A stretch of DNA of 64,000 bases, from the NCBI GenBank assembly GCA_965243395.1, contig CBDEUS010000001.1:1152001-1216000 (forward strand), given 5' to 3'. This stretch comes from Gammaproteobacteria bacterium. GTDB taxonomy: Bacteria; Pseudomonadota; Gammaproteobacteria; UBA4575. The notes below the pieces were generated by a model that was not told the origin of the DNA, made no database searches, and worked only from the letters and a program-made list of their open reading frames with translations. The number at the start of each line of letters is the position of its first letter. Within the stretch, counting starts at the first letter, position 1. This document shows, one piece after another, positions 754-39,154 of the stretch. Made by a program: the position numbers and the translations under genes.

Positions 754-830
754 TGGCGCGCCCGGAGAGATTCGAACTCCCGACCGCTCGGTTCGTAGCC
801 GAGTACTCTATCCAGCTGAGCTACGGGCGC
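754..830 (-). tRNA. tRNA-Arg(ACG)
   Basis: GCGCCCGTAGCTCAGCTGGATAGAGTACTCGGCT-ACG-AACCGAGCGGTCGGGAGTTCGAATCTCTCCGGGCGCGCCA; 77 nt cloverleaf with encoded CCA. Confidence 0.97.
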
Positions 831-914: not shown

Positions 915-1045
<131 letters not shown>

Positions 1046-27216: not shown

Positions 27217-27810
27217 TTAGAAGTAAGTCTTTGCAGTCTGGAGGCTATTCAGCAATTCATGATGTTGCTGCTGCAACTGGCTGCCAAGTGTGGACATTTG
27301 CTCTGTTATATTATCTTTTTCTGCAACTTCACTAGATGTCGCAGTAGTCGTTTTCACTTTACAATGCAGGTATTGGTATTTTTTTAATAAATAATTATTG
27401 TATAAAATACCATCAAGGAATGCTTTGCATTCGGTATAAAAACTACGAATTGCAATTCGCTCTTCTTGTGTAGGCAGCTTGTTGATTTCTGAAGTATCGC
27501 TTTGAAATTTATTAAAGACTTCTTCTGCACCACTCCAAAAAATAAATAAACCATTCTCGGCTTGACTCATCTCAAGCTTAGTAGAAATATCATTGCGGTA
27601 AGAGTTTAGGAATGTCGTAATATCCTGCTTATATTGTTCGCGTAGTGTTTGTATGCGCTTTAATTCTTCTCTATTTTTACGAACACGTTGTAAATTAACA
27701 TGAAATTTTTGCCAAACTTTCATTCCCCAAAGTACTAACAATAAAAATACAATGGCTACTAGTCCTGTTTTTAGATTTACAACAGATATGATCGAGTCGA
27801 CTGCATTCAT
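27217..27810 (-). CDS. Hypothetical protein with an N-terminal TM helix
   Basis: 197 aa ORF with GGAG upstream; no family recognised. Confidence 0.65.
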   Translation of the reverse strand: MNAVDSIISVVNLKTGLVAIVFLLLVLWGMKVWQKFHVNLQRVRKNREELKRIQTLREQYKQDITTFLNSYRNDISTKLEMSQAENGLFIFWSGAEEVFNKFQSDTSEINKLPTQEERIAIRSFYTECKAFLDGILYNNYLLKKYQYLHCKVKTTTATSSEVAEKDNITEQMSTLGSQLQQQHHELLNSLQTAKTYF

Positions 27811-27959: not shown

Positions 27960-29897
27960 TTAACGATTCATCCGATTATCAATAATATCATTGACTACGG
28001 ATGGATCTGCAAGGGTTGAAGTATCCCCAAGATTTTCAATTTCATTTTCAGCTACCTTGCGCAGAATTCTACGCATAATTTTTCCTGATCGTGTTTTTGG
28101 CAAACCTGGCGCCCACTGAATGATGTCGGGATTAGCAAAGGGTCCAATTTCTTTGCGAACGAGTTGTATTAATTCTTCTTTTAAATCATCTGAAGTTTCT
28201 ACACCAGCCATAGGTGTAACATAAGCATAAATACCCTGCCCTTTAATATCATGCGGATAACCGACTACTGCTGCTTCTGCAACTTTTGCATGTAACACCA
28301 GGGAGCTTTCCACTTCTGCTGTTCCTAACCGGTGTCCTGAAATATTTAATACATCATCTACACGACCTGTAATCCAGTAATAACCATCCGCATCACGTTT
28401 GCAGCCATCACCGCTAAAGTATTTACCTGGATATTGTGAAAAATAAGTATCAATAAAACGTTGATGATCACCATATACCGAACGCATTTGTCCTGGCCAG
28501 GGATGCTTCATAACTAAATTACCCTGACACTCGCCTTCGAGCTCATTTCCGTTTTCATCAACTATGGCAGGTTGAATACCAAAAAAGGGCTTACTGGCTG
28601 ATCCGGGTTTTAAATCAGTTGCACCTGGCAAGGGAGTTATCATGTGTCCACCCGTTTCCGTTTGCCACCAAGTATCAACAATTGGGCAACGTGAATCTCC
28701 TACTACATGGTAGTACCACTCCCAAGCTTCAGGATTAATTGGTTCACCTACGGTTCCCAACAAACGTAAACTTTTACGACTGGTTTTAGCAACGACGTCA
28801 TCACCCAAACTCATGAGTGCGCGTATTGCAGTGGGTGCGGTATAGAAGCTTGCTACATTATGTTTATCGCAAACTTGCCAAAAACGACTTCCGTCAGGAT
28901 AGTTAGGAACACCTTCAAACATCATGGTGATAGCACCATTACATAATGGTCCATACACTATATATGTATGTCCGGTGACCCAACCTACATCTGCTGTACA
29001 CCAATATACTTCACCATCATGATAATCAAATACAAATTTATGCGTGATGGCAGCATATAAAAGATAACCTCCCGTTGTATGCAAGACTCCTTTAGGTTTT
29101 CCGGTAGAACCTGATGTATACAAGATAAACATCGGATCTTCTGCGTCCATATGCTCAGGTTCACATTCTGTACTTATGTTGCTAATTAATTCGTGATACC
29201 AACAATCACGTGAGTCATGCCAGTCGATTTCACCACCAGTACGCTTTACAACAAGAACCGTTTTAACGTTTGGACATTCTTCTAGTGCCTTATCGGTATT
29301 TGCTTTAAGTGGTACTTTCTTTCCACCACGTACACCTTCATCAGCAGTGATTACGGTCTGACAATCCGAATCTAAAATTCGATCGCGCAAAGAATCAGGC
29401 GAAAATCCTCCAAATACAACAGAGTGCACTGCGCCGATACGTGTACATGCCAACATTGCATAAGCCGCTTCCGGAATCATTGGCATATAAATGCATACTC
29501 GATCGCCCTTTTTAACACCACGTGCTTTTAAAGCATTAGATAATTTGCAGACCTCTTCATGGAGTTGCTTATAAGTAATATGTTTATCATCTTTAGAATC
29601 ATCCCCTTCCCAAATAATCGCGGTTTGATCACCGCGTTTTTCCAAATGACGATCAATACAATTATAAGAAACGTTTAAACTCGCGCCCTCAAACCAACGT
29701 ATATGACCTTTGTGATAATCCCAATCTAAAACGTTGTCCCATTTTTTATACCAGCTTACAAATTCATTCGCTTGCTTTGCCCAAAATCCATCTGGGTCCT
29801 GTATCGATTCTTGATACATAGACTCATATTTTTCATTATCTATATGCGCAGTAGATGCTATTGAACTTGGAACTGGATAGATTTTATTGTCAGACAT
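27960..29897 (-). CDS. acs: Acetate--CoA ligase
   Basis: [32 protein letters not shown]. Confidence 0.97.
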
Positions 29898-29936: not shown

Positions 29937-32243
29937 TTATGCGGTTAATCTTAGATATAGCATGGGCAATCGCTCGGGTAAGCGATCAATATTATCAATT
30001 ACAGCTACATTTTTTCTTCCAAAGATTTTGTGTAGATAATTATCGCCTCCTGCATCTAAGCCGACACAAAATGTATCAATTCCTAATCGCGAATTAGATC
30101 GAACGACTTTACGAGCGTCTTCGACTAAATATTTTTTATCTTTAACATCAATATCAGATGGTTCACCATCAGAAATTACAAGCAACAATCTTCGATGTGT
30201 TCTTTGAAGCATTAAATCTCTTGCTGCATGACGCATTGCAGGACCCATACGAGTTGAAAGTTTTCCAGTTAATCCTGCTAAATACGCTCGTGCAGTTGAA
30301 TCATAGTCGGTGTTAAAATTTTTAATACGATAATAATGTACATCTTCCTTACCATCAGAACAAAATGCAGTAATAGCAAACGGATCCTTTAGTTCTGACA
30401 TAGCATAGGCTAATAAAGCAGTAGATTGAATTTCAAGTTCAAGTACGGATGATCCTGATTTAGGAATACGATCGTTGGTAGAATTTGAAATATCTAATAA
30501 AACCATAACCGAGAGATCACGATGTTTGCGTTCCGTAGTGCTATATATATGTGGATCAGGTATTTCCCCCATTCTTCGACTAATAATTGCATTAATACAA
30601 GCATCTAAATCTAAAGATTCGCCAATATTTTGATGATGCAAGCGTTCGGGCAAACTTACATTCGCTGATAGAATAAGATTTGTAATACGGTTAACTAAAT
30701 TCTGGTGGTTTTCTAATATTCGCTCGATTTTATATGCATCTCCAAAATCAGGAAAATACTCGACAACACATGTCCAGTTAGGTCGCTCTGTTCCTGTTAG
30801 ATAATCATATTCGGGGTAACGTACAGCAACTTCTGATTCACGTTGTTCTTGATCCGTACTTTCCCGTGCATGATATTGTTGTTCACTTTCTTCATCATTT
30901 TCCTCTCGTTCAGTGTCAGATTGTGAACTATCTTCCTTTTCTTCTTGTTCCATACGCATTGCTTCAATAAATATACCTTGATCATCTTCTTCTGTTCCTT
31001 GTTGATCACCAAAATCCCATAAACCCAAATTGTCATCACGATAAGGTGGTTCTACTACATACGTTTTTGCATTAAATTGTGCACGTAACTGCCCTAAATC
31101 ATTACCTAAAAGCACTCCAATTTTTCTGCACAAGGTTGGGTCTGACATATCATTCGATGGATCAAAAAACATATCCCGCCCCTTTTGTATCCAGCCATCA
31201 CCATCATGGTAATTTTCATCAATAAGTGCGCGTGCTAAGCGAGCGAGCAATAGAGGAACTAATTTAGGTCCATTTGATTTAGCAACATGAAACGGCAACC
31301 AAAGTTTATGTAAGCCTGGGAATACCTGCATAGCCAGATACTCAACTCTCGCATCTTCTAATAACGACACAAGTGCGACTTGTATAGGCTTAAGCTCACC
31401 TAATGGAAATCGCTTTGTTGAGTACACTAGATGCGCACCAACATGCGCAAGACCTGCACGAAATATATTTTCTGCCTGTTCGCCATGAAAGCCTGGAAAA
31501 ACTTCTGGCACTCTAACAACACCATTGGTAATTGATATTCTTCTTAATGAAAGCGGTGCAGTCGATGCAGGAAGATCACGAATGGGCGGGCGTAAATTCC
31601 ATAACGAAATTAAGTAAAGTTTCAGTCTCCGGTCTAAATCTGTATAAACTACGTCACCCGCCTCATGGCGAAACCATTTTTCTGATTCAGGATCCGTGAA
31701 TGAAAAATATTGAATTTGTCTTAATGTATCATCACCAGTTGAGCGTAAACCCGCTAATACCCATGATTTAAACTGGGTGGGTGTCAATGTAGTGACAATT
31801 TTCTGGGTGCGCTCTAAGACTGCTAAAACTGATTCGGGTGCTGATTGAATTAATTCTTCAATAGTATTAATCCATGCAATAAAAGAAGAGTAATTATGCA
31901 AATCATGTGCAGCAATGACTGCAGCTTTTGGCAGCAACTCAGCCGTTGCACGATTTACTTTAATTGCAGCCAGGGATACGGTTGCTGCTAGATTAATTGC
32001 AGCTTCTGAATTTAATAATTTTACTAATTTTGGCGAATGTCTTGCGTAGGAAAGAGGAATTAAAGATCCATAACCTGCTTGAGCAAGTTTATTGCATGAT
32101 TCTTTCCATAAAGGATAGTACTCTTTTGGGAAAAACGGCTTAGCTTTTTCAATTAAAAAAACTAATCGTTCATCTGGATCACCAGGTTCTTTATGTTGAG
32201 GTAAAACAGCATATTTACCCCGCGTAGTGGAGGCAGCAGCCAA
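29937..32243 (-). CDS. CbbO/NorD-type von Willebrand factor A adaptor
   Basis: 768 aa; RYPEYDY, acidic linker, C-terminal MIDAS (LDISNST, STRMGPAMRHA, SDGEP). Confidence 0.88.
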   Translation of the reverse strand: MAAASTTRGKYAVLPQHKEPGDPDERLVFLIEKAKPFFPKEYYPLWKESCNKLAQAGYGSLIPLSYARHSPKLVKLLNSEAAINLAATVSLAAIKVNRATAELLPKAAVIAAHDLHNYSSFIAWINTIEELIQSAPESVLAVLERTQKIVTTLTPTQFKSWVLAGLRSTGDDTLRQIQYFSFTDPESEKWFRHEAGDVVYTDLDRRLKLYLISLWNLRPPIRDLPASTAPLSLRRISITNGVVRVPEVFPGFHGEQAENIFRAGLAHVGAHLVYSTKRFPLGELKPIQVALVSLLEDARVEYLAMQVFPGLHKLWLPFHVAKSNGPKLVPLLLARLARALIDENYHDGDGWIQKGRDMFFDPSNDMSDPTLCRKIGVLLGNDLGQLRAQFNAKTYVVEPPYRDDNLGLWDFGDQQGTEEDDQGIFIEAMRMEQEEKEDSSQSDTEREENDEESEQQYHARESTDQEQRESEVAVRYPEYDYLTGTERPNWTCVVEYFPDFGDAYKIERILENHQNLVNRITNLILSANVSLPERLHHQNIGESLDLDACINAIISRRMGEIPDPHIYSTTERKHRDLSVMVLLDISNSTNDRIPKSGSSVLELEIQSTALLAYAMSELKDPFAITAFCSDGKEDVHYYRIKNFNTDYDSTARAYLAGLTGKLSTRMGPAMRHAARDLMLQRTHRRLLLVISDGEPSDIDVKDKKYLVEDARKVVRSNSRLGIDTFCVGLDAGGDNYLHKIFGRKNVAVIDNIDRLPERLPMLYLRLTA

Positions 32244-32251
32244 GACTCACC

Positions 32252-33049
32252 TCACGCACAAGCCTCAATGGCTGAACTCAGCGCATTGCGTATATCATGG
32301 TCATCTGTAATAGGTAATACTAATGCAACTTCACAAGCTTCTTCTAAAGACACTCCCTGTGATATAAGTTGCGCAGCATAAATTAGCATTCTAGTCGATG
32401 CTCCTTCATCTAAACCATGACCTTTCAAATTTCTAGAGCGATCTGATATTTGTACTAACTTCCTAGCTATATCAACATTGATTCCTGATTCATGTGCAAT
32501 AATTTTTGCCTCTTCATCTGCTTTAGGATAATTAAAATCAATCGCACCAAACCTTTGTTTTGTAGACTCTTTCAAATCTTTCAAGACACTTTGATATCCG
32601 GGGTTATAAGAAATCACAATTTGAAAATCTTGATTTGCTTTTACAACCTCATTTTTTTTCTCCAATGACAACATGCGACGGTCATCTGTTAATGAGTGTA
32701 TAACAACACTCGTATCCTGCCTTGCCTCAACAATCTCATCTAAATAACAAATTGCTCCGTATCGTACTGCAAGTGTTAGAGGGCCATCGTGCCAAACTGT
32801 TCCTTCAGCATCGAGGAGATAACGACCTACCAAGTCAGAGGCAGTCATGTCTTCATGACAAGAAACTGTGATAAGCGGTTTTTTTAACTTCCATGCCATA
32901 TATTCAACAAAGCGTGTTTTTCCGCAACCTGTTGGTCCTTTTAGCATCATTGGCATCCTAGTCGCGTAGGCTGCTTCAAACAATTGAATCTCATTATGGG
33001 TGGGAGAGTAATAAGGTTCTTCAGTAATGAAGTAACTATCGAGATTCAT
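32252..33049 (-). CDS. CbbQ/NirQ/NorQ-family (MoxR) AAA+ ATPase
   Basis: GPTGCGKTRFVEYMA, CYLDEIVEARQD, SYNPGYQ, DLKESTKQRF, GLDEGASTR. Confidence 0.93.
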   Translation of the reverse strand: MNLDSYFITEEPYYSPTHNEIQLFEAAYATRMPMMLKGPTGCGKTRFVEYMAWKLKKPLITVSCHEDMTASDLVGRYLLDAEGTVWHDGPLTLAVRYGAICYLDEIVEARQDTSVVIHSLTDDRRMLSLEKKNEVVKANQDFQIVISYNPGYQSVLKDLKESTKQRFGAIDFNYPKADEEAKIIAHESGINVDIARKLVQISDRSRNLKGHGLDEGASTRMLIYAAQLISQGVSLEEACEVALVLPITDDHDIRNALSSAIEACA

Positions 33050-33070
33050 TCTGCTTTCCTTAATTTACAG

Positions 33071-33106
33071 AAAAATAAGGCGAAGACACAAGCGTGCCCT
33101 CGCCTT
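33071..33106 (-). terminator. Stem-loop or leaky terminator between amiE and cbbQ-like gene
   Basis: Minus strand AAGGCGAGGGCAC-GCTT-GTGTCTTCGCCTT-ATTTTT. Confidence 0.6.
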
Positions 33107-33123
33107 GATTTAAAGTAACTGAA

Positions 33124-34158
33124 TTAACGATGAGTTTTAGGGTTAGGTATTCCTTCAATCTCACACTCTTCAGTACCAACAGTTGTGCGCGTAATAGACT
33201 CAACCATTTCGCGTGTTGCATCTGGATCTGTAATCCATTTTTTGTAAAAGTCATATGGACATTCTGCAACACCTTGATCACCTTCACCAGAGTTAATTTT
33301 ACCGGTGTAACCTCTATGAAGAAGTTTAAATAAGTGATTTTGTGATTGTTGATTTTTACGTGCATCCCGAATGAGTGAAGTCGACAAGTTTGCATACTGA
33401 ACGCCCATGTCTTCCTCTGCACAAGCACCAAGTGTGCGTCCATCGAATCCAATTATTGAAGAATAACCAAAATATGAATACACACCATCAAATCCTGTTG
33501 CATTTGCAACAGCAACATAACAGTTGTTCATCCATGCCATTGCTTTGGCTACCATAATTTGCTGATCTTTCGATGGATACATATAGCCTTGACAACGTAC
33601 GATTAACTCTGCACCTTTCATTGCACAATCACGCCATATTTCAGGATAGTTTCCGTCATCACAAATGATTAGACTTATCTTTAAGCCTTTAGGACCATCT
33701 GAAACATAAGTGCAATTACCAGGATACCAACCTTCAATAGGTACCCAAGGCATAATTTTGCGATACTTTTGCACGATCTCTCCTTGATCATTCATCAAAA
33801 TTAAAGTGTTGTATGGCGCTTTGTTTGGATGATCTTCATGGCGTTCGCCGGTCAATGAAAATACACCCCAAACTTTTGCATTACGACATGCTTCTGCAAA
33901 AATTTCAGTTTCTTCACCTGGACATGTTGATGCAGTTTCATACATCTCTTTCTCATCATACATAATTCCATGAGTGCTATATTCAGGAAAAATTACCAGA
34001 TCCATTCCAGGTAAACCTACTTTCATACCTTCAATCATGCTTGCAATATTGCGCGCATTATCGAGCACTTCGGCTTTAGTATGCAGTCTTGGCATTTTGT
34101 AATTTACAACTGCAACGCCGACGGCATCTTTACTACTTGATATATCACCGTGATACAT
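33124..34158 (-). CDS. amiE: Aliphatic amidase
   Basis: [23 protein letters not shown]; catalytic triad in [30 protein letters not shown]. Confidence 0.96.
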
Positions 34159-34268: not shown

Positions 34269-34344
34269 AAAAAAAGCCCTCTAGGGAAAATTCCTAGAGG
34301 GCTTTTTTGCCCAAAACTTTCTGCAGAAGCGTTATTGGTTCTGC
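34269..34344 (-). promoter_or_regulatory. ANTAR-type dual-hairpin antiterminator plus terminator in the amiE leader
   Basis: P1 GCAGAAC-C[AATAAC]G-CTTCTGC; P2 GGGC[AAAAAA]GCCC overlaps terminator AAAAAAGCCCTCTAGG...CCTAGAGGGCTTTTTTT. Confidence 0.85.
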
Positions 34345-34381
34345 TGAATAATTCAATTAATACTAGCGATGTGTTAAGTGC

Positions 34382-34463: not shown

Positions 34464-35066
34464 TCATTCAACATTCACTTCTAAAGTTTTATCCGCAGCA
34501 ACTATTTCTTGTGCAACATCTTCCGTAGTTAAACGACGCTCCATGGCTTTAGACCTAATAAATTCATACGCTTGTTCGCGACTAATGTTATTTGCCCTTT
34601 CAAGTATCGCTATTGCATGCTCAACAGCATGAATATTTCTAATTTTCGTCTCGAGCTTTTGTACCCTAGAACCAAGTATTAATTCTTTACGCCAATGTGT
34701 TCTCGCGATCACCATATTGGCTAATAGGCCAAAAGGTCGAACAGGTGTATTCAGTATTGCATGTGCGCCCAATTCATACGCAGTTTGTAATACGGTCGGA
34801 TTTTCGTAATCAACTATAGCTATGATTGTTGGACTGTTTTTATCATCTGCTAACCATGTAGGCTTTTCAACAAATGGGTGATCTTGCAAAGTCTGCAAAA
34901 AAACTACATCGGTGTTCGATTTAATACGTTTGGGGCAAGGCCATACCATTCGCACCGAGCAACCAATACGTTCTATATGCTGACATATATCACTACCCTG
35001 CTCGTTATTAGGATGAACAACTAATATCCTAAGCTTGCGTAGATCTTTTAATATCTCAATCGCCAT
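34464..35066 (-). CDS. amiR: ANTAR antiterminator AmiR
   Basis: Pseudo-receiver (IERIGC..WP, IVDYENPTVL) plus ANTAR domain (AIAIL...EQAYEFIRSKAMERR). Confidence 0.9.
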   Translation of the reverse strand: MAIEILKDLRKLRILVVHPNNEQGSDICQHIERIGCSVRMVWPCPKRIKSNTDVVFLQTLQDHPFVEKPTWLADDKNSPTIIAIVDYENPTVLQTAYELGAHAILNTPVRPFGLLANMVIARTHWRKELILGSRVQKLETKIRNIHAVEHAIAILERANNISREQAYEFIRSKAMERRLTTEDVAQEIVAADKTLEVNVE

Positions 35067-35068
35067 AT

Positions 35069-36235
35069 TTAACTCAGTTCGCTTTCAAAATATTTCATAC
35101 GACTCAAGCTCTTGTCCGAACCAAGATCAACGAGATATGGATCAGGTTTAACTGGACCATCTGTTTCTGCAACGATTTGGAATTGTCCTGATTTATTTAC
35201 TCGACCAATTTTTGGCCAAAGAAATGTGTGGTTGTTATCAGGATCAATTTGAATAGAACCTTGTGGCGCATCAAATATTGTGCCTAGTGTTGCTGTGCGG
35301 ACAATTTCTGTATCCAATGTGCCTACTCGACGTAACACATCTGCAAAAAGGTGGACTTGAAAATAAGCTGCTTCTGCACAAGCATTAGTACGCAATCTAT
35401 TGCCAAACATTGCTTTATATTTTTTGACAAATTTATAATTTGAAGGTGTTTGTACAGATTCAAAATAGGGTGCTGCAGTAATATGACCCTCCCCTACTTC
35501 CTCTCCCATCGCACTCACTTCTGCTTCACTTGTAGTTAGGCTAGCAATAGGCATTTGCTTTGGTTGCAAACCCGCATTCCAATAACTTTTATAAAATTTA
35601 CTTGTTGCAGACCCTACAATAGTACTGAAAATGACATTGGGTCGTTTTTCTAATATATCAACCAAAATTGGGTCAATATCATTTTTAGTTGCATCTAATG
35701 GAAGATATTTTTCTGCAACAACTTTGCCACCAGCTGAATTCAAAATATCCTTCATAATGCGATTTGACTCATAAGGATAAATATAATTTGAGCCTATAAA
35801 ATAAAATCGATTTCCATATTGATTCAATAAATATCGTGCCAAAAACATACTGTTTTGGTTGGGTGCTGCACCTGTATAAATTACATTTTTTGAATATTCA
35901 AAGCCTTCATAAAGTGTCGGATACCATAAAAGTCCATTATGGTTCTCAACAATCGGTAGCACAGCTTTGCGCGTGCTCGACATATAGCACCCAAAGATTA
36001 TGTTTGCTGAATCTTTTGTAATTAAACGATTTGCTAATCGTCGAAAGTTTTCAGGATTAGACTGGGGATCATAATAAATGGGTTTGATATTTCTACCATT
36101 AACACCCCCATTTGAATTAATTTCACGAATTGCTAATAAGGTAGCATTAAGTTGTGTTTTTTCTATTACAGATGTAACACCTGTTTTAGAAAATAAAATT
36201 CCAACTTTCCAAGAAGATTTGACCACATCAAACAC
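35069..36235 (-). CDS. amiC: Cytoplasmic amide sensor AmiC
   Basis: GILFSKTGVT, FGCYMSSTRKAV, LWYPTLYEGFEYS, GAAPNQ; no signal peptide; adjacent to amiR. Confidence 0.9.
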   Translation of the reverse strand: MFDVVKSSWKVGILFSKTGVTSVIEKTQLNATLLAIREINSNGGVNGRNIKPIYYDPQSNPENFRRLANRLITKDSANIIFGCYMSSTRKAVLPIVENHNGLLWYPTLYEGFEYSKNVIYTGAAPNQNSMFLARYLLNQYGNRFYFIGSNYIYPYESNRIMKDILNSAGGKVVAEKYLPLDATKNDIDPILVDILEKRPNVIFSTIVGSATSKFYKSYWNAGLQPKQMPIASLTTSEAEVSAMGEEVGEGHITAAPYFESVQTPSNYKFVKKYKAMFGNRLRTNACAEAAYFQVHLFADVLRRVGTLDTEIVRTATLGTIFDAPQGSIQIDPDNNHTFLWPKIGRVNKSGQFQIVAETDGPVKPDPYLVDLGSDKSLSRMKYFESELS

Positions 36236-36889: not shown

Positions 36890-38194
36890 ATGAATCGACG
36901 CAAATTTCTAAAAAAATCTGCTGTCGTAGCGGGAACTGCAGCCGCAGCTACGATCTCTGACTTTCCTTACTTTTTCACAAGAAATTATGCGAAAGCAGCA
37001 GCAGGAGATACTATAAAAATTGGTATCCTGCATTCACTAAGTGGAACTATTGCGATTATTGAACGTTCACTGCATAACGCAGAGTTGTTAGCCATTGATG
37101 AAATCAATGCGGCTGGCGGTGTTATGGGTAAACAATTAGAGCCTGTAATTGAAGACCCACAATCCCTCGTTCAGGTATTCGCAGAAAAAGCGAAGAAACT
37201 TATTCTTGAAGATGAAGTTGTAGCTGTATTAGGTTGTTATACATCTGCGAGTCGTCAATCGGTTTTACCAGTATTTGAGCAACATAATAATGTTCTCTTA
37301 TATCCAACCCTTTACGAGGCACAGGAATGCAGTAAAAACTGTTTCTACACTGGCTGCGTTCCAAATCAGCAACTAGATGATTTTGTTCCATGGCTAATTG
37401 AAAATGTTGGACCTAAGTTTTATATGCTTGGGTCGAATTATATCTATCCAAAAGAAACCAATCGTGAAGTGAAAGCTTTGCTTAAAGCTCATGGTGGTGA
37501 GGATGTTGGAGAAGAATATGCGCCTCTTGGTCATACAGAATTTTCTACTAACATTAACAAAATTGCTTCTAAACAACCTGATGTCGTGTTCTCCGATCTT
37601 GTGGGTGACTCAGTTGTGGCTTTCTACAAACAATTCCGTCAGTTTGGACTAACTGCAGACGATATGATAATTGCCACACCCATTACTACCGAACAAGAGA
37701 CTGCGGCAATGGGACCAGAAAATGCATTAGGTCACTTAACTTCATTCAACTATTTCCAATCAGTTGATACACCAGAAAACAATAAGTTTGTTGAAGCTTA
37801 TAAAGCGAAATATGGTAAAAACGAAGTTACCAATGCAGTGATGGAAGCGGCTTATTTTCAAACACATATGCTTGCGCAAGCAATTGAAAAGGCGGGCTCA
37901 ACAGAAGCCGATGCATTAATTTTTGAAGGTTTACCTGGTCAAGAATTTACTGCTCCAGGTGGAAAAGTCAAAATTGATGAGAAAAATCATCACACGTGGC
38001 TATGGCCGAAAATTGGACGTGCTAATGAACAAGGCCAATTTGACATCATATGGCAACGTGATGATTGGGTGCGCCCTGATCCATGGGTAGACCTATTGTA
38101 TCCAAATAAGGATTGCGATTTTACTAATCCAAGTGTTCTCGAACGATTGAAGTCTGGTGATCCAGATCGTTCAGGAACATTCGATATAAGTTAG
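36890..38194 (+). CDS. urtA: Amide/urea ABC transporter substrate-binding protein (UrtA/FmdD-like), Tat-exported
   Basis: NRRKFLK Tat signal, IKIGILHSLSGT, GCYTSASR, PNQQ. Confidence 0.85.
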   Translation: MNRRKFLKKSAVVAGTAAAATISDFPYFFTRNYAKAAAGDTIKIGILHSLSGTIAIIERSLHNAELLAIDEINAAGGVMGKQLEPVIEDPQSLVQVFAEKAKKLILEDEVVAVLGCYTSASRQSVLPVFEQHNNVLLYPTLYEAQECSKNCFYTGCVPNQQLDDFVPWLIENVGPKFYMLGSNYIYPKETNREVKALLKAHGGEDVGEEYAPLGHTEFSTNINKIASKQPDVVFSDLVGDSVVAFYKQFRQFGLTADDMIIATPITTEQETAAMGPENALGHLTSFNYFQSVDTPENNKFVEAYKAKYGKNEVTNAVMEAAYFQTHMLAQAIEKAGSTEADALIFEGLPGQEFTAPGGKVKIDEKNHHTWLWPKIGRANEQGQFDIIWQRDDWVRPDPWVDLLYPNKDCDFTNPSVLERLKSGDPDRSGTFDIS

Positions 38195-38214
38195 GTCAGC
38201 ATCATGTGTAAAAA

Positions 38215-38240
38215 GGTGGTAGTAATTTTTTACTACCACC
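38215..38240 (+). other. Intergenic stem-loop after the binding-protein gene
   Basis: GGTGGTAGTA-ATTTTT-TACTACCACC perfect 10-bp stem; such stems commonly stabilise SBP mRNA. Confidence 0.55.
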
Positions 38241-38284
38241 CCTTCTAACCTACGTGCCATTTTCTATAAAAAGAAAAATTTGAA

Positions 38285-39154
38285 ATGGAAGCAATCATCA
38301 CTCAATTTCTAAGTGGATTCAGTGTAGTAGCAATTTTAATTATTGCGGCTGTAGGTCTAGCCATAATCTTCGGTGTTGCCGGTGTCATAAACATGGCACA
38401 TGGCGAGTTCATTATGGTTGGTGCCTACACAGCAGCTGTTGTTGGGCAACTCGGTGGTAATACCTTTATTGCTATTCCAGTTGCGTTTGTAGTTGTTGCT
38501 TTACTTGGATTAATTGTAGAGCGATCTGTCATTCAGTGGATTTACGATCGACCGTTGGAAACGTTACTTGCTACCTGGGGTGTTGGGATCATTTTACAAG
38601 TGGTAATGAAATTAATATTTGGCCCAGAGCTATATTATGTTGGTGCACCGAAAATTCTTGACGGTGGCTTTCGAGTTATTGGCTTACTTCCTTTCCCATG
38701 GTACCGATTATTTTTAATCATACTTGCAATTGCACTAATGATAATTACATACCTGGTTATGTTCAAAACTGATTTAGGTTTAAAAGTTAGAGCAGTACGA
38801 AGAAACAGAACCATGTCAGGATGTTTAGGTATCGATACCGCAAGAGTCGATATGATTATTTTTGCGTTTGGCTCTGGATTAGCCGGAGTAGCAGGCGCAG
38901 CACTAGCCCCTATCAAGTCAGTTTCAACCACTATGGGTTTCCCCTACGCAGTGGATTCATTCATGGTTTTAGTGTTAGGAGGTGTTGGAAATCTTTGGGG
39001 TGTGGTTGCAGGTTCATTTTTAATAGGGGAAGCAGAAACGATATTGTCATTTATTTATAACAATGTAATTGGAAAACTTTTAGTTTTCATTTTTATAGTT
39101 TTAGCTATACGTGTATTCCCTAGGGGATTATTTGGGTATCACGAACGAACTTAA
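38285..39154 (+). CDS. urtB: Amide/urea ABC permease (UrtB-like)
   Basis: GLAIIFG..GVINMAHGEFIMVG, RPLETLLATWG. Confidence 0.87.
   Translation: MEAIITQFLSGFSVVAILIIAAVGLAIIFGVAGVINMAHGEFIMVGAYTAAVVGQLGGNTFIAIPVAFVVVALLGLIVERSVIQWIYDRPLETLLATWGVGIILQVVMKLIFGPELYYVGAPKILDGGFRVIGLLPFPWYRLFLIILAIALMIITYLVMFKTDLGLKVRAVRRNRTMSGCLGIDTARVDMIIFAFGSGLAGVAGAALAPIKSVSTTMGFPYAVDSFMVLVLGGVGNLWGVVAGSFLIGEAETILSFIYNNVIGKLLVFIFIVLAIRVFPRGLFGYHERT

Follow-up and report, generated by a model that had tools for sequence, protein, structure and literature searches.

What is a two-component machine of the kind that serves Rubisco or nitric oxide (NO) reductase doing directly behind the gene of an aliphatic amidase? 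This question is raised by a stretch of 64,000 nucleotides from a Gammaproteobacteria bacterium of the UBA4575 lineage (assembly GCA_965243395.1, contig CBDEUS010000001.1, positions 1,152,001 to 1,216,000), hereafter called the window. On its minus strand, the amidase gene amiE (33124..34158) is followed by the genes of a CbbQ-type MoxR AAA+ ATPase (32252..33049) and of a CbbO-type adaptor with a VWA domain (29937..32243). Just beyond the interval 29937-34158 that these three genes occupy lies acs (27960..29897), encoding an acetate--CoA ligase. [quoted passage not shown] MoxR-VWA machines are, to our knowledge, widespread and have few known clients: Rubisco, NO reductase and chelatase-type systems. 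The comparisons reported here support a pair dedicated to amiE and point to a two-residue signature at the C terminus of the amidases concerned.

Linkage of the pair to amiE

Of the 8000 candidates scored in a word-indexed search with the VWA protein, 2116 were relatives at E <= 0.001; the top 120 are 51-97% identical to it, about 760 residues long and in few cases named. A scan of one genome per species gave 422 VWA relatives, the best 80 of which (44-97% identity) were fetched with 10-kb flanks. The order amiE, ATPase gene, VWA gene on one strand is found in all 67 of these VWA-centred loci that have at least 2300 bp upstream, and the 13 shorter loci comprise one with all three genes and 12 cut at the contig end. 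Their hosts are gammaproteobacterial metagenome-assembled genomes labelled Thiotrichales, one such genome of Marinomonas, and many Alphaproteobacteria (Kiloniellales, Pelagibius, Mesorhizobium, Azospirillum, Nitratireductor and Methyloligella). Since order and strand are the same in each of the 67 informative loci, the arrangement goes far beyond chance. At the level of sequence, the proposal that the pair is dedicated to amiE is thus supported. The acs gene stands immediately 3' of the pair in 16 of the same 67 loci.

Sampling was also done from the amidase side. Of 401 genomes taken from across the phylum, 24, one of them that of the window, have a match to NF009802 over its cut-off, and the other 23 were fetched. 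Six of them encode a CbbQ_C ATPase and a VWA protein directly 3' of amiE: two are of the window type (ATPase 75%, VWA protein 47-48% identical) and four of a divergent type (ATPase 55-63%, VWA protein 29-34% identical and 536-655 residues long). Seven carry an ATPase of the AmiB type (about 345 residues, AAA_2 and ClpB_D2-small) after amiE. The remaining ten have neither, amiE being trailed instead by genes for UreD, FmdA or an aldo-keto reductase, for example. An AmiE homologue also occurs in 66 plasmid records, from which 16 were picked by eye for taxonomic spread. The pair lies in the amiE operon in seven of these plasmids, an AmiB-like gene accompanies amiE in three (directly downstream in two, divergently upstream in one) and six have neither.

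The sequence-only reading had held that the pair stands in the place of AmiB, and the survey bears this out: over the 23 genomes and 16 plasmids, the pair is present in 13 amiE loci, AmiB in 10, and no locus has both. AmiB-like genes are missing from all 80 VWA-centred loci and from the surroundings of amiE in the window. In the window's own genome the only AmiB-like matches (35-38% identity) are distant from the operon, and we take them to be general Clp-type ATPases. The window ATPase is itself not of the AmiB type (about 345-370 residues), since it combines AAA_5 with CbbQ_C, and not PF07724 AAA_2 with ClpB_D2-small as do AmiB-like proteins from six loci. The latter architecture also rules out an assignment of AmiB as CbxX/CfxQ-like. 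An apparent pair 4.5 kb from amiE in one genome (L122) was likewise rejected: the CbbQ there is linked to Rubisco and groups with the CbbQ clade, and an AmiB-like gene directly follows amiE. On plasmid p1 of Rhodococcus sp. M8 (L203, 2324-5712), acs and the gene of an AmiB-like AAA ATPase, 43% identical to a proteobacterial AmiB-like protein, are divergent from amiE. The association of amiE, an AAA+ protein and acs therefore reaches beyond Proteobacteria, in a different arrangement.

The amidase C terminus, the ATPase and the adaptor

AmiE of the window, a protein of 344 residues, scores 714 bits against NF009802 (cut-off 427), and its nearest solved chains are the aliphatic amidases 2plq and 2uxy. 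All catalytic residues of the Glu-Lys-Glu-Cys set of the nitrilase superfamily are present (E59, K134, E142 and C166), and the protein ends in His343-Arg344-COOH. An alignment of 92 AmiE rows, of which 71 are linked to the main pair, 4 to the divergent pair, 6 to AmiB and 11 to neither (including L122, later assigned to AmiB), was searched for columns at least 93% uniform in the pair-linked rows and at most 20% so occupied in the others. Exactly two columns were found, and they are the last two residues. The His-Arg terminus is shared by 75 of 75 pair-linked AmiEs and by none of the 17 others, which end in NY (four), TA (two), AG (two), DR, PR, AK, SE, EE, PH, GA, LG and AD. Among the plasmids, six of the seven pair-linked AmiEs end in His-Arg and none of the nine others in H-[RK], in a test that was not fully blind because match coverage up to residue 344 was visible when the plasmids were chosen. 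Pooling both sets gives His-Arg in 81 of 82 pair-linked AmiEs and in 0 of 26 others. A two-residue terminus common to the pair-linked amidases suggests that the pair acts on the amidase itself. In solved amidases, the C-terminal tail of AmiE interlocks the subunits. Amidases are subject to urea inhibition and to oxidation of Cys166.

The handle proposed in the sequence-only reading was a different one, the acidic stretch of the AmiE tail, thought to be bound by the MIDAS. This part did not hold: the stretch, GT[ED]EC.IEG, is also found in pair-less AmiEs and is not specific, and the discriminating feature is the C-terminal His-Arg. A complex prediction with the whole VWA protein and the AmiE tail (residues 296-344), run without controls, scored 0.06 and 0.10, where the mark is 0.32, and weighs neither way.

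The distribution of the signature was followed on an AmiE tree from which the last 12 residues had been removed (27 pair-linked rows of the 92, each with 95% identity or more to a retained row, were dropped). The state of pair and His-Arg changes at least four times on this tree. For example, L132, with the pair and His-Arg, lies within a starred clade of L121, L128 and L131, which have neither. The main pair-linked AmiE clade is sister to four pair-less AmiEs ending in NY, and AmiB-linked AmiEs form a clade of their own in which none ends in His-Arg.

The ATPase has the features of the CbbQ/NirQ/NorQ subfamily of MoxR proteins: its 265 residues comprise an AAA_5 core (PF07728, 1.7e-33) with Walker A (G38-T45) and Walker B (D104-E105) motifs read from the translation, and a CbbQ_C domain (PF08406, 4e-32). 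Sequence matches in the PDB are to CbbQ (5c3c, 409 bits; 6l1q, 383 bits) and to NorQ (9qh4, 301 bits; 9qhd, 296 bits), in agreement with the tree described below. CbbQ_C was found in 164 of the 401 sampled genomes, and 60 loci were fetched and labelled by their Pfam-identified neighbours; ATPases adjacent to norCB are 41-59% identical to that of the window, those adjacent to Rubisco genes 63-72%.

A quick IQ-TREE phylogeny of 106 rows (42 of 148, each with 90% identity or more to a retained row, were dropped) separates these groups. The norB-linked clade (22 rows) and the Rubisco-linked CbbQ clade (24 rows) each have 98 in the Shimodaira-Hasegawa-like approximate likelihood ratio test (SH-aLRT), and no amiE-linked row falls in either. 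Sister to the CbbQ clade (support 87) is the main amiE clade, with 51 rows, 48 of them amiE-linked and three cut at a contig end. The position of the pair outside the Rubisco- and Nor-linked clades is as the sequence-only reading would have it. Four divergent amiE-linked ATPases fall outside the main clade, on long branches. The gammaproteobacterial clade of the window (8 rows, support 100) is nested among alphaproteobacterial rows in the ATPase tree and likewise in the AmiE tree, which points to horizontal transfer of the whole operon. Ten ATPase positions distinguish the main amiE clade from CbbQ; of these only A217 is fully common to the four divergent ATPases (1.00), with L3, F24 and H65 at 0.75, and nothing is drawn from them.

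Two Mesorhizobium-like loci (L063:14045-22011, minus strand, and L082:682-3485) hold a second CbbQ_C/VWA pair, 3-6 kb from the amiE-linked one. It is flanked by three ORFs with weak Tubulin_2/Tubulin Pfam matches (E ~1e-6 to 1e-7), and its ATPase groups with the divergent amiE-linked ATPase of L115. These loci may thus hold a further MoxR-VWA system, one that serves a client of cytoskeletal type.

The adaptor (768 residues, TTG start) has the length and organisation of CbbO-type proteins. Its sole Pfam match is a C-terminal VWA domain (579-745), which carries a complete MIDAS of DxSxS, T and D elements: D584-x-S586-x-S588, T664 and D692 are invariant in 84 homologues and also conserved in the CbbO and NorD classes. 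Searches with tblastn align residues ~31-767 with Rubisco-linked CbbO at 27-35% identity, the N-terminal ~550 residues included; with norB-linked VWA partners, only residues ~476-768 are aligned. AlphaFold2 models (mean predicted local distance difference test score 81.3 for the whole protein and 91.2 for the N-domain) comprise a helical-repeat/HxxxH N-domain (~23-410), a linker that is acidic and disordered (414-471), a 'finger' formed by a beta-hairpin (472-496) and the VWA domain with its MIDAS (~500-768). The VWA domain matches solved NorD (phmmer 1.3e-36 over 461-766, Foldseek 1e-19, VIA Z 25.5). In fold searches with the whole model (Foldseek and VIA), this domain fills the lists, which are headed by the VWA domain of NorD.

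The N-domain sets the adaptor apart from NorD. In a class comparison by fast MAFFT, restricted to rows of the ATPase-tree set and without ORFs of 850 residues or more, H267, H271, E296, D297 and R299 are common to amiE-linked adaptors and Rubisco-linked CbbO and are not found in NorD, which argues that the adaptor is CbbO-type. Both classes of amiE-linked VWA protein (47 rows of the main class, 4 of the divergent one) keep R335, G384, Q385 and R387, which 16 Rubisco-linked CbbO proteins do not; these residues are for this reason candidates for client recognition. The invariant motif H267-x3-H271...E296-D297-x-R299-x-E301 (window 31038-31446, minus strand, residues ~267-402) is also present in the CbbO of L142 and others. 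It may represent a metal site, or else a pseudo-protease module, that CbbO-type adaptors have in common. Foldseek with the N-domain model gave no match in the PDB at E <= 0.001. With VIA, residues 1-178 of this model have only generic helical-repeat matches (Z 9-11, designed proteins), and model residues ~175-383, in the part of the adaptor at ~197-402, have weak matches to minimal zincin peptidases (Z 5.5-6.4), among them selecase (4qhf, 6.4), abylysin (4jiu, 6.4), jannalysin (4jix, 6.0) and 3e11 (5.6). The region has H267-x3-H271 without the catalytic Glu of HExxH, and these weak matches are a lead only.

Could the client be Rubisco or NO reductase encoded elsewhere? The genome (2.58 Mb, two contigs, 100% complete) has no match to PF00016 RuBisCO_large and no tblastn match with a form-I RbcL from another locus. 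The same kind of search, using the NorB of a cytochrome c-dependent NO reductase (cNOR) from another locus, found no full-length NorB in the genome; only a NorB-like piece of 132 residues (29.5% identity) is present. What had been said of the window, that it contains no gene for either enzyme, thus extends to the whole genome. By these sequence comparisons the pair does not appear to be a CbbQO Rubisco activase, with no Rubisco in window or genome and its ATPase outside the starred Rubisco-linked clade. Nor is it a NorQD system, there being no full NorB, the ATPase lying outside the norB clade (98) and the N-domain motif being absent from NorD.

The genome holds a second CbbQ_C ATPase (contig 2, 679924-680715, minus strand; L003:9919-10731), 59% identical to that of the window, which groups with the client-less ATPases of L146 and L148 in a separate clade. 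A second VWA protein, of 780 residues, is encoded 78 kb before the window (contig 1, ~1072757-1075099, plus strand; L004:8758-11100) and is 29% identical to the window's over the C-terminal third. The two genes are unlinked to each other, and neither has a Rubisco, nor or amidase gene at its side. The neighbours of the orphan ATPase gene on contig 2 include aprB/aprA-like genes (L003:11937-14302) for the beta subunit of adenosine 5'-phosphosulfate reductase and a flavin adenine dinucleotide flavoprotein; in a Rubisco-less genome, they suggest sulfur-compound metabolism in a heterotroph.

Operon context and possible action of the pair

Upstream of amiE, on the same strand, lie a gene for an AmiC-like cytoplasmic amide sensor (35069..36235; 388 residues, PF13433 Peripla_BP_5 2.2e-146, no export signal) and, directly 3' of it as in the amiC-amiR pairs of related loci, the gene of the antiterminator AmiR (34464..35066; 200 residues, PF21332 AmiR_N 1.2e-37 and PF03861 ANTAR 1.3e-10). 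A leader of 305 nt separates amiR from amiE. Within it (34269..34377, minus strand), hexamers, direct reading and RNA folding reveal three elements: at 34377..34348 a promoter-like site, at 34344..34323 a small hairpin and at 34308..34269 an intrinsic terminator, read directly from the sequence as the stem GCCCTCTAGG/CCTAGAGGGC followed by T7. The leader folds with a minimum free energy of -53.8 kcal/mol (z -3.89), a value that none of 200 shuffles equalled. A strong terminator before amiE, together with an AmiR_N/ANTAR regulator and a Peripla_BP sensor, fits AmiC/AmiR antitermination. By likeness to the ami leader of P. aeruginosa, as depicted in portions of PMC12591593, the terminator is the predicted target of AmiR.

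Downstream, the genes are closely spaced, with 74 nt between amiE and the ATPase gene, 8 nt between the latter and the VWA gene, and 39 nt before acs. The first of these gaps contains a hairpin (33077..33106, minus strand; 13 bp, 7 of them G-C) followed by ATTTTTCTGT. Among 68 intergenic regions that were folded (L005-L084), the 18 inspected have a hairpin with differing stems at this position, directly after the amiE stop codon and often with a T-run behind it. Its probable role is that of a partial terminator or of an mRNA 3' stabiliser, which would set amiE above the downstream genes. This role matches the excess of amiE over amiB transcript in P. aeruginosa that is reported in sections of PMC12591593.

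The acs gene (645 residues, NF001208 1106 bits) is the only full-length one of the genome, and its product is the metabolic follow-up to acetamide hydrolysis. Directly 3' of it, an ORF of 197 residues (27217-27810, minus strand) has no Pfam or NCBIfam match. Divergent from the operon, on the plus strand (36890..39154), are a substrate-binding protein (TIGR03407-like, 444 bits, under the cut-off, with a twin-arginine translocation signal) and the first permease (TIGR03409 UrtB, 324.6 bits) of a Urt-type ABC transporter for urea or short amides. Three more ORFs continue past the permease up to 41798, and the same transporter stands beside amiE in many related loci. The only Rfam matches of the window over the gathering score are tRNA genes at 757-830 (minus strand) and 915-1001 (plus strand).

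Taken together, gene linkage, phylogeny and analogy with related machines favour, with some confidence, the reading of the ATPase and VWA protein as a CbbQO-type MoxR-VWA remodelling machine whose client is AmiE, whose handle would at least in part be His-Arg and whose effect would be activation. The operon would be induced through AmiC/AmiR antitermination at the leader, and the hairpin behind amiE would probably keep the machine sub-stoichiometric. The ATPase would form a hexamer, with one VWA protein plugging its beta-hairpin finger into the pore, as in CbbQ6O1 and NorQD, and gripping the client through the MIDAS site and the N-domain. The C-terminal His-Arg-COOH at the end of the AmiE tail would be the client handle or part of it. 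ATP hydrolysis would then twist or stretch the adaptor and so remodel the bound enzyme. Activation could consist in the release of a dead-end state of the active-site Cys166 or in maturation of the hexamer, and the acetate produced would be passed onward by Acs. What the sequences themselves show is the gene content, the conservation of the linkage, the structure of the clades, the exclusivity with AmiB and the His-Arg signature; complex formation, binding, the direction of the effect and the role of His-Arg are all features that we infer.

Several observations weigh against this reading. Literature searches, including one on inactivation of AmiE at Cys166, gave no tight-binding inhibitor problem comparable to that of Rubisco, and no metal cofactor of AmiE is known. 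Both the pair and AmiB are missing from about half of the amiE loci sampled (10 of the 23 genomes and 6 of the 16 plasmids); any need of AmiE for such a helper can thus only be conditional. One pair-linked AmiE, the most divergent (L212, Aestuarium), ends in HK, and on a Roseateles plasmid (L199) permease and hydrolase genes lie between amiE and the pair. The set of 80 VWA-centred loci is enriched by construction, since L[LI]GNDLGQ[ML], one of two patterns used in the scan, turned out to be specific to proteins linked to amiE. Related genomes in the samples are not independent, and the trees are quick ones with SH-aLRT values only, that of the main amiE clade being 88, below 95.

The effect on AmiE might lie earlier in the life of the enzyme. 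Rather than reactivating it, the pair could fold AmiE or build the homohexamer with its interlocking tails, and the extreme C-terminal location of the signature would suit such a chaperone, as would the example of NorQD, a maturation and not a repair factor in the relevant parts of PMC13036017. We regard this as a serious but rather unlikely alternative: the closest clade is that of the repair enzyme CbbQO and not of NorQD, and many AmiEs assemble with no helper gene nearby, as in the 10 of 23 genomes mentioned above. A terminal two-residue signature also looks like a recognition tag, and AAA+ machines can disassemble complexes, as is discussed for Rea1/midasin in places in PMC4660213. The pair could then recognise His-Arg in order to inactivate or dismantle AmiE once the amide is gone. 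Such a negative role is improbable, because co-transcription with amiE under inducing conditions would be odd for an inactivator, the characterised CbbQO and NorQD both activate their clients, and no protease gene is linked.

Two other explanations would leave AmiE aside. If amiE were merely a constant neighbour, the client could be another product of the operon, such as Acs, the Urt-type transporter or AmiC/AmiR. The position of acs after the pair in the window, in the 16 related loci and on two plasmids (L198 and L204), and the AmiB-like ATPase adjoining acs on the Rhodococcus plasmid, would agree with this. In the other 51 of the 67 loci, however, acs is not directly downstream, as against amiE in all 67; amiC/amiR and the transporter are absent from loci where amiE and the pair remain (L016, L017, L019, L022 and L046, for example), and the covarying residues belong to AmiE, all of which makes a client other than the amidase hard to credit. 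Least probable of all is the absence of any functional tie, the pair being a selfish or hitch-hiking cassette, or one with an unlinked client, co-inherited through transfer of a single island. The operon does occur on plasmids and shows signs of horizontal transfer, namely the nesting of the gammaproteobacterial clade of the window inside alphaproteobacterial rows in both trees. Yet neither order nor strand changes as identity of the VWA protein falls to 44%, pairs of the second, divergent type (ATPase 55-63%, VWA protein 29-34%) are likewise found directly after amiE, and the His-Arg terminus is lost wherever the pair is absent.

Activation of AmiE by the pair could be one case of a wider pattern. 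It is conceivable, if doubtful, that dead-end-prone amidases, like Rubisco, have repeatedly recruited AAA+ 'activases', a CbbQO-type machine gripping His-Arg in some operons and the unrelated Clp-type AmiB in others. Given the divergent pairs, the CbbQO-type machine itself may have been recruited by amidases more than once.

Relation to known systems

The bare association of amiE with such a pair is already in print. Plasmid pYu-LOS15-16 carries an operon of amiE, amiC, amiR, a PF07728+PF08406 ATPase and a NorD-like protein, the same gene set as in the window (PMC13209695, Microorganisms 2026;14:1048). In its passages on the operon, this paper of May 2026 deals with one locus in a one-paragraph remark with a BLASTN note on Burkholderiales, and those passages hold no survey, phylogeny, AmiB comparison, His-Arg signature or test of the pair. 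The statement in the sequence-only reading that it knew of no amidase described as a CbbQO client therefore stands as regards analysis and experiment, but not as regards the association. As a whole that reading is partly supported: a CbbQO-like pair dedicated to AmiE is retained, His-Arg takes the place of the acidic stretch as the proposed handle, and the association had to some extent been described before. As far as the literature searched shows, the linkage in its breadth and strictness, the place of the pair in a clade sister to CbbQ, its exclusivity with AmiB and the His-Arg signature are new. By the same searches so is the adaptor motif, with the reservation that the supplements of PMC4660213 and PMC13036017 may already describe an N-domain motif.

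If amidases have indeed recruited AAA+ 'activases' repeatedly, AmiE would add a third class to the clients of CbbQ/NorQ-VWA machines, the first to lie outside metallo- or sugar-phosphate enzymes, and AmiB would gain a function. The pair is of interest to researchers on AAA+ remodellers and on amidases alike. Since AmiE is soluble, easily assayed and a homohexamer of known structure, it would as a client be an unusually tractable model for client recognition and remodelling, with the His-Arg terminus as an immediate mutational handle. In biocatalysis, some expressed aliphatic amidases may need partner genes for full activity. A pair that acts on AmiE would also touch on a thirty-year-old question, that of the function of AmiB in the classic Pseudomonas amidase operon.

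CbbQO is the nearest of the known systems. It is a CbbQ6O1 complex (Tsai et al. 2015) in which the MIDAS binds a surface carboxylate or acidic residue of Rubisco; it also requires the C terminus of the Rubisco large subunit, a peptide of which stimulates its ATPase (PMC4660213, in the sections on client binding). This precedent of MIDAS plus client C terminus makes the same machine, retargeted to AmiE, the simplest reading. The likeness extends to an ATPase of the same Pfam architecture (63-72% identity), an adaptor of about 770 residues aligning with CbbO over its full length (27-35% identity), an ATPase-then-VWA pair behind the presumed client gene, and a client C terminus that is implicated. 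Unlike CbbQO, the pair has no Rubisco in its locus or genome and belongs to a separate sister clade, its adaptor has a motif of its own (~376-390, with G384, Q385 and R387, plus R335) and its presumed client is a thiol enzyme of the nitrilase superfamily.

NorQD (Kahle et al. 2026) is the maturation factor of cNOR; a finger of its VWA domain enters the ATPase pore, the C terminus of NorD touches the ATPase and the linker is stretched, according to excerpts of PMC13036017. The window likewise encodes a MoxR ATPase with a VWA partner, whose VWA domain matches that of NorD and which has a beta-hairpin where NorD has the pore finger. In contrast, norB-linked ATPases form a distinct clade (41-59% identity), no norCB is present here, and NorD is shorter (612-709 residues), aligns over the C-terminal third only and does not have the HxxxH...ED.R motif.

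AmiB of the P. aeruginosa amiEBCRS operon, the function of which is still unknown and which is termed a 'hypothesized chaperone' in part of the text of PMC12591593, resembles the pair in another way: it is an AAA+ ATPase encoded directly after amiE. It nevertheless belongs to a different AAA+ lineage (PF07724 AAA_2 with ClpB_D2-small, about 345 residues) and has no VWA partner. The position that AmiB and the pair share, and their mutual exclusivity, suggest that two unrelated types of ATPase play analogous roles behind amiE.

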